Below the pieces are notes generated by a model. The model was given only the letters and a program-made list of their open reading frames with translations. It made no database searches and was not told the DNA's origin. Shown one piece after another: positions 5,032 to 31,142 of a stretch of DNA of 33,203 bases. How positions within the stretch are numbered: position 1 is the first letter of the stretch; each line of letters opens with the position of its first letter. Origin of the DNA: Dehalococcoidales bacterium (lineage in GTDB: Bacteria; Chloroflexota; Dehalococcoidia; Dehalococcoidales; GCA-2688105); assembly GCA_030640255.1 (NCBI GenBank), contig DAOWJS010000103.1:1-33203 (forward strand). Direction: 5' to 3'. Position numbers and translations under genes: made by a program.

Positions 5032-5303
5032 TAGGAACTAGAGCGGGCGTGACTCGAGGTTCAGAACTCTCTATCGGATAGGAAGCTTGATATCGAAGAT
5101 ATGTCGCTTACGCAGAGCTATGTGGCTGTTCTGAAGAGCTTACTGGAATCCGCTCCAATACTCGAGCAAAAAGCATACTTGAAGTCATTTGTCAGAAGTA
5201 TTGAGGTATCCAAATCTGAGGTTACTGTAAACTACTCTCTTCCGATGCCCATATCCAATACCGGTAGGGAAAGTGTTGGAGTTCTTGCTTTTAGATTGAG
5301 TGG
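5032..5303 (+). pseudogene. C-terminal relic of a large serine recombinase (integrase) running into the tRNA-Lys 3' end
   Basis: The frame reads *ELERA*LEVQNSLSDRKLDIEDMSLTQSYVAVLKSLLESAPILEQKAYLKSFVRSIEVSKSEVTVNYSLPMP...VGVLAF. This resembles the coiled-coil/C-terminal tail of tRNA-targeting serine recombinases; in-frame stops at 5032 and 5050, no catalytic domain. Confidence 0.65.
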
Positions 5304-5376
5304 TAGGCCGTGCAGGTCTCGAACCTGCGACACCCTGATTAAAAGTCAGGTGCTCTGCCAACTGAGCTAACGGCCC
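5301..5376 (-). tRNA. tRNA-Lys (anticodon UUU)
   Basis: Reverse complement GGGCCGTTAGCTCAGTTGGCAGAGCACCTGACTTTTAATCAGGGTGTCGCAGGTTCGAGACCTGCACGGCCTACCA folds as a cloverleaf with anticodon TTT and encoded CCA. Confidence 0.97.
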
Positions 5377-5426
5377 GTATTTAACCTTAGTGAGTTGTCA
5401 CAGCGATACTTTGTTTATACGCTCCG

Positions 5427-5455
5427 ATTTTAGCAAAGCTGGGATACCAATGCAA
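5427..5455 (-). promoter_or_regulatory. Sigma70-type promoter for tRNA-Lys(UUU)
   Basis: Minus strand TTGCAT-17 nt-TAAAAT with extended -10 TG. Confidence 0.6.
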
Positions 5456-5488
5456 ATATGACACGTTAGGGCACTGATTCTTTTTAGC

Positions 5489-5695
5489 TTATTTCCTGCC
5501 CATCTTGGTCAGGAGCCAGGAGACCCATTGCTCAATTCCCTGACCAGTGACACAAGAGACTTGAAAAATCTCTACTTTCTTGTTTATCCCCTTGATTGCT
5601 TGAGAAAAAGTCTGAATATCAAACTCCAGGTATGGCAAAAGGTCAATTACTGTCTCCTCACATCCGCCACACGAAGCACACCAATAAAAAGCAAA
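5489..5695 (-). pseudogene. Chimeric deletion scar: [NiFe]-hydrogenase small-subunit N-terminus fused in frame to the HypB C-terminus
   Basis: Manual minus-strand translation FAFYWCASCGGCEETVIDL|LPYLEFDIQTFSQAIKGINKKVEIFQVSCVTGQGIEQWVSWLLTKMGRK*; there is no start codon. Confidence 0.8.
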
Positions 5696-5726
5696 ACAAT
5701 TTCGGGTTGTAATGCGGAGGAGGGGG

Positions 5727-7460
5727 CTATCCCTTGAATCGGTTGGTAATGGGCAATCTCCTATCTCTACCGAATGCCCGGGGAGTTACCTTGACCCCTG
5801 GCGGCGCCTGGCGACGCTTATACTCGCTCGTGTCCACTAACCAGGCAGCCCGCCTGACCACCTCTTCATCAATTCCCATAGCCATAATCTGCTCTACGCT
5901 TTTGTCCTCCTCGACATAAGCGGTTAACACCGGGTCGAGCAGGTCGTAGGGAGGCAGGGTGTCAGTATCCTTTTGTTCCGGCCTTAGCTCAGCCGAGGGC
6001 ACCTTGTCTATGATGGTGGAAGGTATAAGCTCCAACCCGGCTATTGAGTTTCGGTATCTGGCGAGTTTGTAGACCATGGTCTTGTATACGTCCTTTAGCA
6101 CGGCAAAGCCACCGGCCATATCCCCAAACAACGTGGTGTAGCCGGTGGCCATTTCGCTCTTGTTGCCCGTGGTCAGAACCAGCCAGCCGAATTTGTTGGA
6201 TAACGCCATGAGGATATTGCCTCGGACACGAGCTTGAATATTTTCCTCAGTCACATTGGGCTCAGTCCCTTCAAAAGATGGAGCCAGCATCTCAAGGTAG
6301 TCTTGAAAAACCTTCTCAATAGGGATAGTTATCAGCCTGATATCCAGGTTATGAGCCAGCAACTCAGCGTCTGAAATACTGCCCGGAGAAGAGTATCTTG
6401 AGGGCATCGCTACCCCGACCACGCTTGATGGCCCCAGGGCGTCAACGGCAATAGCAGCCACTAAGCTGGAGTCAATGCCTCCAGAAAGACCAATCAGTAC
6501 CTTCTCAAAACCATTCTTGATGATGTAATCGTGCGTGCCCAACACCAGCGCATCATAGACCTCCCCGGGCAGGCCATGCACCTCAAGTTGCCTTGGCGGT
6601 AGCGGTGGTTTTGGAGCTGCCGAAGGCACTTCAGACACCACTAATTTGGTCTCACGCCACCCTTGCTCTTCCAGAAGCGGCGTCCCCTTTCTCCACCTAG
6701 GGTCGTGAAGACGCGCCCGAAAGACAGCCTCAACATCAAGGTCAGCTACTATCAGGTCTTCTTCAAACTGCTTACCCCTGGCTATCAGCCGCCCCTTCTC
6801 ATCCAGCACCAGGCTATTGCCATCAAAGACCAGCTCATCCTGCCCTCCTACCAGATTGTTGTAAGCCACGATAGCTACATTGTCCGAGGCACGGGCTCCC
6901 ATCATTCTTTCCCTGAAGTCTCCCTTGCCAAAATGATATGGCGAAGCACTTATGTTCACTATGACCTCAGCCCCGGAGTAGACTTGTACCGTAGTTGGCC
7001 CGCCCTCGTACCAGAGGTCTTCACAAATGCTGATGCCGACACCAACGCCAGCTATGATATAGACGGGATACTCCTTCCCCGCCTGAAAGTAGCGGTTCTC
7101 ATCAAAGACTCCGTAGTTGGGCAGGTATATCTTGTGATAGACACTAACCAGCTTGCCATCGTGGATGACAGCGGCAGCATTGTAGATGTCACCTTTGGCA
7201 TCAACGAAACCAACCACCAGGGTAAGCCCCGAGGAGTGTTCAACCACCTGGTCAAGAGACCTTAGATTTTCCTCGATAAACCGTGGCTTAAGCAGAAGGT
7301 CCTCCGGCGGGTAGCCGCAGATGGCAAGCTCAGGAAAGGTAAGGAGGTCAACCCCTAAAGACCTGGCTTCGGTGATGGCTTCCAGAATCTTCTGAGTGTT
7401 ACCCTGAAGGTCACCAACGGTAGTATTGATCTGAGCCATACCTATTCGTAGTCTGCGCAC
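5727..7460 (-). CDS. nadE: Glutamine-dependent NAD+ synthetase
   Basis: N-terminal nitrilase-type glutaminase domain (FPEL, YHK, ICED) plus synthetase domain (GLSGGIDSS, ENIQARVR, TGNKSE, PSAEL, EYKRRQ); GTG start with SD GGAGG. Confidence 0.96.
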   Translation of the reverse strand: MRRLRIGMAQINTTVGDLQGNTQKILEAITEARSLGVDLLTFPELAICGYPPEDLLLKPRFIEENLRSLDQVVEHSSGLTLVVGFVDAKGDIYNAAAVIHDGKLVSVYHKIYLPNYGVFDENRYFQAGKEYPVYIIAGVGVGISICEDLWYEGGPTTVQVYSGAEVIVNISASPYHFGKGDFRERMMGARASDNVAIVAYNNLVGGQDELVFDGNSLVLDEKGRLIARGKQFEEDLIVADLDVEAVFRARLHDPRWRKGTPLLEEQGWRETKLVVSEVPSAAPKPPLPPRQLEVHGLPGEVYDALVLGTHDYIIKNGFEKVLIGLSGGIDSSLVAAIAVDALGPSSVVGVAMPSRYSSPGSISDAELLAHNLDIRLITIPIEKVFQDYLEMLAPSFEGTEPNVTEENIQARVRGNILMALSNKFGWLVLTTGNKSEMATGYTTLFGDMAGGFAVLKDVYKTMVYKLARYRNSIAGLELIPSTIIDKVPSAELRPEQKDTDTLPPYDLLDPVLTAYVEEDKSVEQIMAMGIDEEVVRRAAWLVDTSEYKRRQAPPGVKVTPRAFGRDRRLPITNRFKG

Positions 7461-7523
7461 ACTAATTCCTCCACCCGTAGCGAACTACACTCGACTCACC
7501 AGCTTGGGTAAGCATCACTCTTT

Positions 7524-7552
7524 ACTATACTCAGCTTCAAGCCGAAAAGCAA
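7524..7552 (-). promoter_or_regulatory. Sigma70-type promoter for nadE
   Basis: Minus strand TTGCTT-17 nt-TATAGT. Confidence 0.5.
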
Positions 7553-7601
7553 TGGCTTTACTGTTAAAAACGCCCGTTATCAGCACCAGAATGTAGTCTA
7601 T

Positions 7602-7630
7602 TTCCAAGAATCGGTTTTTTATGATACATT
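7602..7630 (+). promoter_or_regulatory. Putative promoter for the liv operon (probably leaderless)
   Basis: TTCCAA-17 nt-TACATT with TG extension; it ends 7 nt before the ATG and there is no SD. Confidence 0.4.
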
Positions 7631-20745: not shown

Positions 20746-20825
20746 CTGATTCCCCGCATTTATTATACTCTATATCGGAAGTTTATATAATAGAGCTTTG
20801 CCAATTTTTGTCAAGGAGATTATTT

Positions 20826-21249
20826 ATTAACCTCACCCCTTTAGATTTTTATTAGGTAACCCCATCCCCTTTATCCTTGCCAAAGCAGGCAAGGACTTTA
20901 TCCCCTTCATTCGTGAAATTATAAACTCTAATTTCTAAATCCTAAACAAATTCAAAATTCAAATCCCTAAAGTCTAGAATTTAGTATTTAGTATTTTTAT
21001 TAAATAGGGGCTCCGCCCCTCTAACACCCCTGACTCTTACTCTTGAACAGGGGCTTCGCCTCCCTTTGACTCTCCTTAAAAGGAGAGGGGAAGAGTTTTT
21101 AGCAAAGGGATTTAAAGGGGCGAAGCCCCTTTAAGAATTTCTCTTCCCTCTCCCCTTATGAAGGGGAGAGGGATAAAGGGTGAGGGGTTGTTAAACAATC
21201 TTTTATTAAGGGAAGGGGGGGCAGGGGGATAGGTTGCTAAACAACCTAG
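20826..21249. repeat. Composite GC-rich palindromic (REP/BIME-like) repeat, copy 1, with AT-rich heptamer module and a mini-palindrome insertion
   Basis: Hairpins AGGGGCTCCGCCCCT (21006-21020), TTAAAGGGGCGAAGCCCCTTTAA (21112-21134) and CCCTCTCCCC-TTATGAA-GGGGAGAGGG; GGGATAAAGGGGTGAGG end motif. Confidence 0.85.
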
Positions 21250-27915: not shown

Positions 27916-28150
27916 TCAAGGGAAGCTTGAAGGGGCTTAGCCCCGGCTAATAAGTTAAGAGATTATTTGGTAACCTATCCCCCTGCCCCCCTTCCCTTAA
28001 CCAAGGGAAGGGGGGAGTGCAGGTGAGAGAGGGGCTTTGCCCCTCTCTAAAATCTCTTCCCAATAGGGGTTTAAGGGGCGGAGCCCCTTCAAAAACCACT
28101 CCTCCCCCTCTCCTTTGAAGGAGAGGGGGATAAAGGGGGTGAGGTAGGTA
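27916..28150. repeat. Composite GC-rich palindromic repeat, copy 3
   Basis: GGAAGCTTGAAGGGGC start; CCCCCTTCCCTT-AACC-AAGGGAAGGGGG stem; AGAGAGGGGCTTTGCCCCTCTCT (28026-28048); AAGGGGCGGAGCCCCTT (28073-28089); CCCCCTCTCCTT-TG-AAGGAGAGGGGG; ends GGGATAAAGGGGGTGAGGTAG. Confidence 0.88.
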
Positions 28151-28159
28151 AATAGTCCC

Positions 28160-29206
28160 ATGAACCTGCGGAGAAAAAGTAAACCAATTCAAATTGGCAA
28201 GGTAACTGTCGGCGGTGGCGCTCCCATCGTGGTGCAGTCTATGACTAAGACCGACACTCGTGATGTTATGTCAACTATTGCCCAAATCAAGGAGCTTGAA
28301 GATTGCGGCTGCGAACTGGTGCGAGTGGCAGTGCCTGATATTGAAGCCGCCCGGGCGATACGAGATATAAAAAGAGGCGTTTCCATACCCGTAATTGCCG
28401 ACATTCACTTTGATTACCGGCTGGCTTTAGAAGCCCTGAAGGCTGGTTGCGATGGGCTGCGGTTAAACCCGGGCAATATCGGCGAGCCGGAAAAGGTCAA
28501 GGCTATAGCTCAAGCTGCCAAAGAAAGAAACGTCCCCATCCGTGTCGGGGTCAATGCCGGCAGCCTGCCCAGAGCCGCCAATCCTAAATTAACTATCGCC
28601 CGGCAAATGGTAGATGCCGCCTTACACCAGATTCACCTGCTGGAGAGCCTGGACTTTGACCTGATTAAGGTCTCCCTCAAAGCCTTTGATGTCCCGACTA
28701 CCATTGGCGCCTACCAGGATATTGCCCAGAAGATACCCTACCCTCTGCACATCGGTATTACTGAAGCCGGCCCGCCCAGAACGGGCATTATCCGCAGCAC
28801 GGTAGGCATCAGCACCCTGCTCTACCTCGGCATTGGTGATACTATCCGGGTTTCGCTCACCGCCCACCCCCGAGAAGAGGTAATTGCCGCTTATGAAATT
28901 CTGAAGAGCCTGAACCTGCGCCAGCACGGTCCGATATTAGTCAGCTGCCCCTCCTGCGGTCGGGCTGAGGTTGATATTGTAAAATTAGCTGAGGCGGTAG
29001 AGGAAAGATTATTAAAGGTTGATAAGCCGATAAAGGTGGCGGTGATGGGCTGTGTGGTCAACGGACCCGGCGAAGCCAAAGACGCCGATATCGGCATCGC
29101 CTGCGGCAAAGGCAAAGCCGTCCTCTTCAAAAAAGGCAAGAAGCTCAGAACCATAGAGGAAAGGGATTTCGTGACGGCACTAATGGCAGAAGTGGAGAGG
29201 TTTTAG
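28160..29206 (+). CDS. ispG: (E)-4-hydroxy-3-methylbut-2-enyl-diphosphate synthase
   Basis: VQSMT, ADIHF, RLNPGNIG, PLHIGITEAG, CPSCGR, MGCVVNGPGE. Confidence 0.97.
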   Translation: MNLRRKSKPIQIGKVTVGGGAPIVVQSMTKTDTRDVMSTIAQIKELEDCGCELVRVAVPDIEAARAIRDIKRGVSIPVIADIHFDYRLALEALKAGCDGLRLNPGNIGEPEKVKAIAQAAKERNVPIRVGVNAGSLPRAANPKLTIARQMVDAALHQIHLLESLDFDLIKVSLKAFDVPTTIGAYQDIAQKIPYPLHIGITEAGPPRTGIIRSTVGISTLLYLGIGDTIRVSLTAHPREEVIAAYEILKSLNLRQHGPILVSCPSCGRAEVDIVKLAEAVEERLLKVDKPIKVAVMGCVVNGPGEAKDADIGIACGKGKAVLFKKGKKLRTIEERDFVTALMAEVERF

Positions 29207-29208
29207 CT

Positions 29209-30210
29209 ATGGGAGACGGAACAGAACAAAATCCCTTTACCCGCGAAGATGTGCTCAAAGCCATAGAAGAAAATGGCGGAACAGCCGAAGGTCTTGACCT
29301 GTCTGGGGCAGTATTTGAGCAAGGGATTGACCTGCACGGTCTCGACCTTAAAGGGATTATTCTTAATGGAGTGGATTTGCCGAGCGCTCAGCTCCTTCAT
29401 GCTGACCTTCAGTATGCTAAATTTAACCCGCATAATTCCAAGCCTGCAAATCTTGAAGGCGCTGACCTGCGAGGTGCACATTTGGAATATGCCGAACTCA
29501 AGGGTGCTGAGCTTTGCGAAGCAATCTTTGGGTTATCAGGAGAGTTATCGCATATGAAAGCACACCTCGACAATACTGACCTTCGGGGTGCCAAGCTGTT
29601 TCGTGCTGATTTTAATGGTGTGTTTTTCTACGATACAAAACTTGAGGGCACTTTCATTCGTGGTGCTGATATTACCGAAGCTCATTTAGGTGACGCTGAT
29701 TGGGGTAACTATAAAATCGGAGAGGAGATAAAATATAAAGACTACTACAGTGCGGAACACCGATACAGGCAACTAAAGATATGGTATACCCAATCTGGAT
29801 ATTATGACATAGCGGGAGAGTTTTTCTTCAGGGAGATGGAAGCCAAAAGAAAGGGCGTAAAGTGGTGGCCACAACCTTGGCATAGGACATGGTCTGCGTT
29901 TCATTCTTTTGTTTCTGGCTATGGAGAAAGACCGCTAAGAGTTGTAAGATGGGGAGCGCTAGTTCTATTTGTGTCAGCTTTGCTGTACTTCTTTCTTCGT
30001 GGTGTAGCTCCATATAACCTGTCTTTGCAGGCTTTCCTAGGTAGCCTGTACTATAGCGCAGTGTCCTTCACCGCACTAGGATATGGTCCCTGGTTCACCG
30101 GCGCCTCGGTGCGCAGTTGGGTACAGGGTGCTGGATCAGCAGAAGCTTTCATCGGGGTTTTTACAATAGCGCTATTCTTGGTAACTTTTACCAGAAAAAT
30201 GAGAAGATAA
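29209..30210 (+). CDS. Pentapeptide-repeat protein fused to a two-TM K+-channel-like (Ion_trans_2) pore domain
   Basis: A(D/N)Lxx pentapeptide repeats (ANLEG ADLRG AHLEY AELKG AELCE), GYGERP motif, pore helix YYSAVSFTALGYG flanked by TM helices. Confidence 0.85.
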   Translation: MGDGTEQNPFTREDVLKAIEENGGTAEGLDLSGAVFEQGIDLHGLDLKGIILNGVDLPSAQLLHADLQYAKFNPHNSKPANLEGADLRGAHLEYAELKGAELCEAIFGLSGELSHMKAHLDNTDLRGAKLFRADFNGVFFYDTKLEGTFIRGADITEAHLGDADWGNYKIGEEIKYKDYYSAEHRYRQLKIWYTQSGYYDIAGEFFFREMEAKRKGVKWWPQPWHRTWSAFHSFVSGYGERPLRVVRWGALVLFVSALLYFFLRGVAPYNLSLQAFLGSLYYSAVSFTALGYGPWFTGASVRSWVQGAGSAEAFIGVFTIALFLVTFTRKMRR

Positions 30211-30320
30211 GGGGAAGCTTGAAGGGGCTTCGCCCCTTCATTAACCACCCTCCCCCTCCCTTACAAGGGAGGGGGATAAAGGGGGTAGGTTGCTAACAAA
30301 TTTATAAAGGGGGTGAGGTA
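30209..30320. repeat. GC-rich palindromic repeat, copy 4
   Basis: GGAAGCTTGAAGGGGCTTCGCCCCTTCA; TCCCCCTCCCTT-AC-AAGGGAGGGGGA; ends GGGGGTGAGGTAG. Confidence 0.88.
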
Positions 30321-30953: not shown

Positions 30954-31142
30954 GAGTTTTGCCTCTCTCTAGAATCTCTTCCTAATAGGGGTTTAAGGGG
31001 CGGAGCCCCTCTTGTAAAACCCTAAATCCTAAACCCTAAATCCTAAACCCTAGGGATTTGAATTTTGAGCTTGTTTAGTCCTTCACCTGTGAAGGATTAG
31101 AAATTAGAATTTGTGATTTCACCAAAAGAGGGGGTGAGCTAG
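30954..31142. repeat. Composite repeat, copy 5, with AT-rich heptamer module and a mini-palindrome insertion
   Basis: 30959-31010 closely matches 28037-28088 (…TCTCTCTA[A/G]AATCTCTTCC[C/T]AATAGGGGTTTAAGGGGCGGAGCCCCT); then the (AAA[T/C]CCT)n module, then AGGGGGTGAG. Confidence 0.85.

Follow-up and report, generated by a model that had tools for sequence, protein, structure and literature searches.

Positions 5489-5694 of the window (the whole stretch of DNA analysed here, 33,203 nt long, corresponding to contig C85 of the Dehalococcoidales draft genome G000) are almost certainly the non-functional scar of an Mvh/Vhu-type [NiFe]-hydrogenase and hyp maturation cluster, of which 11,774 bp have been lost through two deletions between 10-nt direct repeats. 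The scar represents a further case of gene loss by short-repeat deletion, which is an ordinary process, rather than an element of a new kind. Our searches of open-access literature turned up no description of such hydrogenase scars in Dehalococcoidia.

The remnant frame and its two halves

The original prediction is upheld in essence, and each of the four checks suggested with it gave a favourable result. It had pointed to an unannotated minus-strand frame between nadE and tRNA-Lys. Such a frame is indeed present at 5489..5785, as a stop-to-stop open frame of 98 codons ending in CFAFYWCASCGGCEETVIDLLPYLEFDIQTFSQAIKGINKKVEIFQVSCVTGQGIEQWVSWLLTKMGRK and a stop codon. As an intact reference we used a genome of the same genus (G001), which is approximately 90% identical at the locus and serves as a proxy for the ancestor. 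The features of the locus are listed here from the upstream to the downstream anchor.

5727..7484, minus strand: nadE (glutamine-dependent NAD synthetase), intact, the upstream anchor; a stop-to-stop frame with its stop codon at 5727-5729
5685..5694, minus strand: junction B, a single copy of TTGCTTTTTA (minus-strand reading), defined by overlapping blastn alignments
5649..5684, minus strand: small-subunit-only remnant, [NiFe]-hydrogenase MvhG/VhuG-like; 54 of 56 nt and 18 of 18 aa identical to G001 over 5639-5694
5639..5648, minus strand: junction A, a single copy of AATTGACCTT, encoding (x)IDL in the same phase in both genes, defined by overlapping blastn alignments
5489..5638, minus strand: HypB C-terminal remnant, 49 codons and a stop, or 52 codons with the shared IDL (to 5647); matched to NCBIfam HypB and to G001 HypB
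5377..5488, minus strand: intergenic stretch from the hypB stop to tRNA-Lys, from the alignment to G001
5301-5376, minus strand: tRNA-Lys(UUU), the downstream anchor (ARAGORN; Rfam tRNA, 69 bits)

Within the open frame, 5489-5694 consists of 18 N-terminal codons of the hydrogenase small subunit, after which the reading frame continues into the final 52 codons of hypB, and the part upstream of 5694 is a chance opening that runs over an intergenic stretch and, in another frame, the 3' end of nadE. The frame had been described as lacking a start codon. Upstream of the join there is indeed no ATG or GTG, but a 49-aa ORF formally starts at an in-frame TTG (5636-5638). Both anchors are shared with the reference genome: the window NadE is 92.8% identical over 581 aa to its G001 orthologue (tblastn), in which Pfam recognizes the NAD_synthase and CN_hydrolase domains, and tRNA-Lys(UUU) also lies 3' of hypB in G001.

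In the 78-aa peptide that was searched, residues 27-75 align to positions 240-286 of 290 of the NCBIfam HypB profile (E = 2.7e-12), and a second NCBIfam HypB model is matched at positions 166-214 of 217 (E = 1.5e-8). The homology is thus well beyond what chance would give, but the scores lie far below the cut-offs for full-length HypB (34.4 versus 121.2 bits for TIGR00073 and 46.7 versus 385 bits for NF007775), whereas the HypB of G001 is full length (216 aa) and above the cut-off (266.5 bits). The HypB piece and residues 165-216 of G001 HypB share 86.5% of amino acids over 52 residues (tblastn, E = 2.9e-25) and 88.7% of nucleotides (18 of 159 differ); in these 52 codons there are nine synonymous and seven non-synonymous changes, which are small counts. 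The last 49-52 residues of the scar thus align to the end of the family profile of the nickel-inserting GTPase HypB (TIGR00073/PRK10463), but without the G-domain the scar is a fragment and not a gene. Neither a P-loop or other GTPase motif nor a metal-binding motif of HypB was found in the surviving piece, and Pfam returned nothing significant for the 78-aa peptide, with only a sub-threshold match to Arf.

The small-subunit half has too few residues to be recognized by a profile, and it has no Pfam match. Compared with the start of the G001 small subunit, it differs by two synonymous nucleotide changes. Counted with both junction words (5639-5694), it represents codons 7-24, AFYWCASCGGCEETVIDL, and includes the first CxxC of the proximal-cluster motif; of the full proximal-cluster cysteine set of Oxidored_q6 (PF01058), the scar therefore has the first CxxC pair only. 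Profile searches, tblastn and the match to a solved structure described below agree with the earlier proposal that two protein families are represented, one in each half, with IDL as their meeting point; a single family spanning the peptide was not found.

The intact locus and the type of hydrogenase lost

In G001, Pfam annotation resolves the locus, on a single strand, into nadE, a 97-aa ORF, the small subunit, the large subunit, nifU, a 79-aa ORF, hycI, mvhD, fer4-mvhD, a metV-like gene, hypFCDEAB and tRNA-Lys(UUU). The large subunit (NiFeSe_Hases) is 487 aa long, NifU 72 aa, Fer4-MvhD 388 aa and the MetV-like protein (DUF5981) 213 aa; the 97-aa ORF has only sub-threshold helix-turn-helix (HTH) matches. 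The genes that had been predicted to be missing from the window, namely the rest of the small subunit, the large subunit, the maturation genes and most of hypB, are thus all present between nadE and tRNA-Lys in the reference.

The G001 small subunit has an Oxidored_q6 domain, and its best solved relative is MvhG (PDB 5odc_E, E = 2.5e-70), to which its alignment begins at KVAFYWCASCGGCEETVIDL, residue 5; these are the residues that survive in the scar. For the large subunit, the best solved relatives are 7t2r_D (E = 6e-118) and MvhA (5odc_F, E = 1.8e-114). The best NCBIfam models of the large and small subunits are VhuA and VhuG, with scores below the equivalog cut-offs. Because the subunits of G001 match MvhA/MvhG and VhuA/VhuG best, the lost enzyme is classified as Mvh/Vhu-like, of group 3c by best matches, rather than HoxY-like; of the two affinities first proposed for the small subunit (MvhG/HoxY-like), these matches retain the former.

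The G001 cluster resembles the F420-non-reducing (group 3c) [NiFe]-hydrogenases MvhAGD/VhuAGD not only in its MvhA and MvhG matches but also in the adjacent MvhD and hycI-type protease. It differs from them in its bacterial host, in the absence of hdrABC from the cluster and in the presence of a Fer4-MvhD fusion, a MetV-like (DUF5981) gene and a small NifU, and the window keeps merely 18 codons of such an enzyme. The linkage of mvhGA to MvhD, the Fer4-MvhD fusion and the MetV-like gene without hdrABC (G001 L023 15464-17688 and L024 706-3199) is a hint that H2 may drive methylene-THF reduction in those relatives that have the hydrogenase.

The two genomes also differ on the other side of nadE. 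A 395-aa class-V aminotransferase gene located in G001 between nadE and liv-type ABC transporter genes (L024 5656-6843) is absent from the window (7565-7602), and the liv-type transporter genes beside nadE are 69% identical between the window and G001, compared with about 90% for nadE. This absence and the divergent transporters suggest further indels or replacement at the nadE locus.

Two deletions between short direct repeats

Three blastn blocks relate the window to the reference genome.

Window 5278-5648, G001 L023 9498-9869: tRNA-Lys, spacer and hypB 3' end, 89.5% identity
Window 5639-5694, G001 L024 3089-3144: small-subunit 5' end, 96.4% identity
Window 5685-7565, G001 L024 3680-5568: nadE and its 3' flank, 90.6% identity

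The blocks are collinear, and neighbouring blocks share 10 nt (5639-5648 and 5685-5694). The word at the first overlap, AATTGACCTT, occurs twice in G001, in the small subunit (..GTAATTGACCTTAACGAG..) and in hypB (..AAAATTGACCTTTTGCC..), with the two copies 11,229 bp apart; it occurs once in the window, with the small-subunit side upstream and the hypB side downstream of it. Likewise, TTGCTTTTTA occurs twice in G001, 3' of nadE and in small-subunit codons 6-9, with a distance of 545 bp between the copies, and once in the window. By these coordinates, the 11,774 bp that the window lacks relative to G001 are made up of an 11,229-bp deletion (deletion A) and a 545-bp deletion (deletion B). Deletion A joined small-subunit codon 24 to hypB codon 165. 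Deletion B covered the 97-aa (HTH-like) ORF and the beginning of the small-subunit gene, with its GGAGG ribosome-binding site, ATG and first six codons. Small-subunit codons 7-24 and HypB codons 165-216 are left. The fusion is in frame because both genes read the AATTGACCTT repeat in one and the same phase, as IDL, and it is without evident consequence because there is no upstream start.

A 10-nt word at both ends of the lost stretch, with a single copy at the junction, is what is expected of deletion between short direct repeats, and this is what we observe. The original prediction had read the join as a microhomology-mediated deletion across a shared IDL. The nature of the event and the IDL in both genes stand, but the shared word measures 10 nt (5639-5648) instead of nine, and the single deletion has to be replaced by two, given the second junction at 5685-5694.

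Textbooks describe deletion between short direct repeats as a mutational route, which proceeds by replication slippage or by illegitimate recombination independent of RecA, and spontaneous deletions of this kind are said to have been mapped classically in E. coli lacI. The window resembles the lacI-type deletions in that one repeat copy is kept at each of its two junctions. It differs from them in being a natural case, probably fixed in an uncultured sediment bacterium, and in having a 36-nt gene island between two adjacent events. In the history that we propose, an Mvh/Vhu hydrogenase and hyp cluster would once have stood between nadE and tRNA-Lys(UUU) in this uncultured Dehalococcoidales lineage, and deletions A and B, whether separate or parts of one complex event, would each have occurred between the two copies of a 10-nt repeat, of which one was kept. 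The anatomy of the junctions points to RecA-independent slippage or illegitimate recombination between short repeats as the probable mechanism. We also considered excision of a mobile element or site-specific excision and rejected it: the G001 cluster contains no recombinase or transposase gene, and its borders have the 10-nt words only.

Spacer, tRNA flank and dispersed repeats

The spacer that adjoins hypB (window 5421-5488, minus strand) is identical to that of G001 over about 68 nt. It contains a sigma-70-like site, TTTGCA-18-TAAAAT, at 5456..5427 (one found versus 0.8 expected by chance, so that conservation is its real support), which is likely the promoter of tRNA-Lys. The deletions in G000 and in a third genome of the genus (G003, described below) both end just outside this conserved block, and the promoter may set the limit of tolerated deletion. 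The extent of the scar would accordingly reflect selection on the nadE 3' end on one side and on the tRNA-Lys promoter on the other.

Beside the 3' end of tRNA-Lys, the window has a start-less plus-strand frame at 5053-5298 (..KSFVRSIEVSKSEVTVNYSLPMP..), with a 49%-identical counterpart at the corresponding position in G001 (L023 9390-9512) and a weak counterpart on another contig of G000 (C43:2193-2486). The frame may be a remnant of a gene of an integrated element. It has no Pfam, NCBIfam or PHROG family match, and its reading as the C-terminal remnant of a recombinase is unsupported in these three collections.

Dispersed repeats of 60-200 nt occur in the window at about 20816-20876, 21052-21247, 27950-28160 and 30205-30320, and two repeat pairs lie within it (28036-28088 with 30958-31010, and 20942-20996 with 31024-31078). 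Dozens of copies with 85-97% identity are found across the contigs of G001 and G003, and several lie within the window, which makes them an interspersed repeat family.

Hydrogenase genes in the rest of the genome

The G000 draft comprises 965 kb in 103 contigs and is 93% complete. When the G001 cluster proteins were compared with it (tblastn), 8 of 16 had no match at E <= 1e-3 (Large, HypC, HypD, HypE, HycI, NifU72, orf79 and orf97), and HypB and Small matched only the scar, apart from a weak match of Small to NuoB on C46. Family searches of the draft found no PF00374 above the cut-off, no [FeFe]-hydrogenase and no HypD. Its single Oxidored_q6/Complex1_49kDa pair is of the complex-I type and is located in a nuoA-B-C-D-H cluster. 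A search for other hydrogenase copies had been proposed together with the original prediction, and it found no other hypB and none of the large subunit, hypC/D/E or hycI elsewhere in the 93%-complete genome.

Contig C61 of G000 retains a cluster of MetF, MetV and an FAD/NAD-oxidoreductase-MvhD protein, which resembles the Hdr/MvhD/MetVF modules described in marine Chloroflexi (PMC5736913), for which that study likewise reports no evidence that H2 is the donor. Loss of H2 oxidation as a phenotype is likely, with 7% of the genome unassembled and a possible location for a hydrogenase. The claim that this lineage lost an H2-metabolism module is borne out insofar as the hyp and hydrogenase genes were not found in the draft, and it is strongly indicated rather than proven, because the genome is an incomplete draft.

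Losses elsewhere in the genus and the wider distribution

G003, a genome of the same genus that is 91% complete, has no PF00374 and no HypD. Its nadE-tRNA-Lys interval contains a piece of the MetV-like protein (residues 126-211, 77% identity) and a piece of Fer4-MvhD (residues 257-320, 62%), interrupted by stops. On another contig, a 121-codon stub of the small subunit, in which the first cluster cysteine is replaced by Arg (YWRASCGGC), runs into the final 100 nt of the large subunit, after which come an intact nifU and a hycI fragment. The cluster of G003 was therefore lost via breakpoints other than those of the window. The intact 72-aa nifU beside the decayed small-subunit stub (G003 L034 969-1578, C4) is an observation in its own right, and the small NifU may have a use beyond the hydrogenase.

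Over 20 kb, the window is 89-94% identical to G001, and the same segments are 78-87% identical to G003 and 74-84% to G002, which makes G000 and G001 nearest neighbours. Because this nearest neighbour is intact, the losses in G000 and G003 would be independent, by an argument based on distances. No match to the locus was found in G002, which, at 67% completeness, says little about its fate.

HypB is above the cut-off in 17 of 41 related genomes, and hydrogenase maturation is thus patchy in the order. In 80 nadE loci from other genomes, the cluster lies downstream of nadE just once (L041), with proteins 100% identical to those of G001, and none of the 47 loci whose downstream sequence extends for at least about 3 kb has tRNA-Lys(UUU) within 3 kb of nadE, which makes the nadE-cluster-tRNA arrangement specific to the genus.

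Independent assemblies and alternative explanations

We examined the junctions in Logan contigs (not raw reads) from four public runs of three studies, which cover cold-seep and sediment metagenomes. The likely source run was excluded; the remaining runs of study P1 are not fully independent of the possible source run. The following contigs bridge both junctions.

X2 record 7: window 5354-6100, two other letters and one gap
X3 record 14: window 5386-6037, two other letters
X5 record 31: window 5349-6100, nine other letters and two gaps
X4 record 20: window 5402-5725, one other letter

Other contigs of the same runs match 5639-5694 only and then continue as an intact small-subunit gene (X5 record 32, loose-ended on both sides, is one of them), so the window lineage co-occurs with relatives that carry the hydrogenase. 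Depth peaks over 5479-5540 and 5634-5695 in these runs are probably due to the intact genes of relatives, with contig depths that cannot be ranked. The exact 26-base word of junction A was not found in JGI metagenome_contigs.

An artefact of assembly or binning, in which two contigs or strains were collapsed at a short shared word and the organism in fact carries the whole cluster, might be suspected in a metagenome-assembled draft fragmented into 103 contigs, with relatives that have intact small-subunit genes present in the same runs. The original prediction had itself named misassembly as the first thing to check, and contigs from the four runs span the junction. They were assembled separately, which argues that there is no misassembly: both junctions recur in four runs of three studies with 1-9 differing letters over 324-752 bases, the Logan index works with 31-letter words, which exceed the 10-base repeats in length, and the window contig continues for 33 kb across the site. 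We consider such an artefact barely credible. It is about as hard to accept that the short locus is the older state and that G001 gained the cluster by insertion next to tRNA-Lys. Outside the genus, the cluster follows nadE at none of the other 79 loci, the tRNA-Lys(UUU) neighbour is missing from all 47 loci with sufficient sequence, and the genus-specific arrangement may derive from an older insertion or rearrangement. But the window holds internal pieces of two cluster genes at the level of identity seen for G001, which an insertion cannot leave behind, and different gene-internal pieces of the cluster persist at this locus in G003. The ancestor of the genus may have acquired the cluster by an earlier insertion, which would be compatible with the scar explanation.

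A third alternative, that the leftover is a working small gene encoding either a 49-aa HypB C-terminal peptide from the TTG at 5636-5638 or a chimeric peptide, strikes us as highly improbable. The frame is still open, a GAGGAG lies upstream of the TTG, the position downstream of nadE on the same strand would probably allow read-through transcription, and the nucleotide identity of the remnant to G001 (88.7%) is near that of nadE (90.6%). Yet the GAGGAG is 15 nt from the TTG, beyond the usual distance, all GTPase and metal-binding motifs of HypB are missing from a piece that covers profile positions 166-214 of 217 only, and the ratio of nine synonymous to seven non-synonymous changes, small as the counts are, makes no strong purifying selection visible. 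Moreover, G003 retains entirely different fragments and none of this piece. A deletion scar of the hydrogenase cluster is thus the reading that we retain.

Implications for hydrogen metabolism in Dehalococcoidales

The scar resembles the pseudogene remnants that are well known from bacteria with reductive evolution (e.g. Genome Biol Evol 2018, PMC6054270). In such cases a dispensable module decays by deletions, and its short leftovers are soon purged. The window lineage differs from those bacteria in being a free-living sediment lineage with a genome of approximately 1 Mb that is not host-restricted, and in the availability of an intact reference from the same genus. For annotation, the 49-aa TTG ORF and the 98-codon frame should be treated as pseudogene remnants and not as genes. 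Metabolic reconstructions of marine Dehalococcoidia infer H2 use from patchy gene presence, and a scar of this kind distinguishes true loss from incomplete binning.

Beyond the single locus, we tentatively entertain a broader scenario, which we think has a smaller chance of being right than of being wrong: the nadE-tRNA-Lys locus would be undergoing repeated, independent and stepwise dismantling of an Mvh-type hydrogenase/hyp cluster, intact in G001, reduced by two short-repeat deletions in the window and by at least three others in G003. If selection and not drift were responsible, cold-seep Dehalococcoidales would now be shedding H2 oxidation beside hydrogenase-bearing relatives. If true, this would be natural streamlining or a 'Black Queen'-type dependency observed while under way, down to its exact breakpoints. 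The differently broken parallel locus of G003 suggests that the module is dispensable or costly in the habitat. As a natural record of the repeated loss of one module, the scar is of modest ecological interest. It offers a base-pair view of how an uncultured sediment bacterium with a small genome lost its only detectable hydrogenase together with its entire nickel-insertion machinery, and the intact sister locus shows exactly what was lost.
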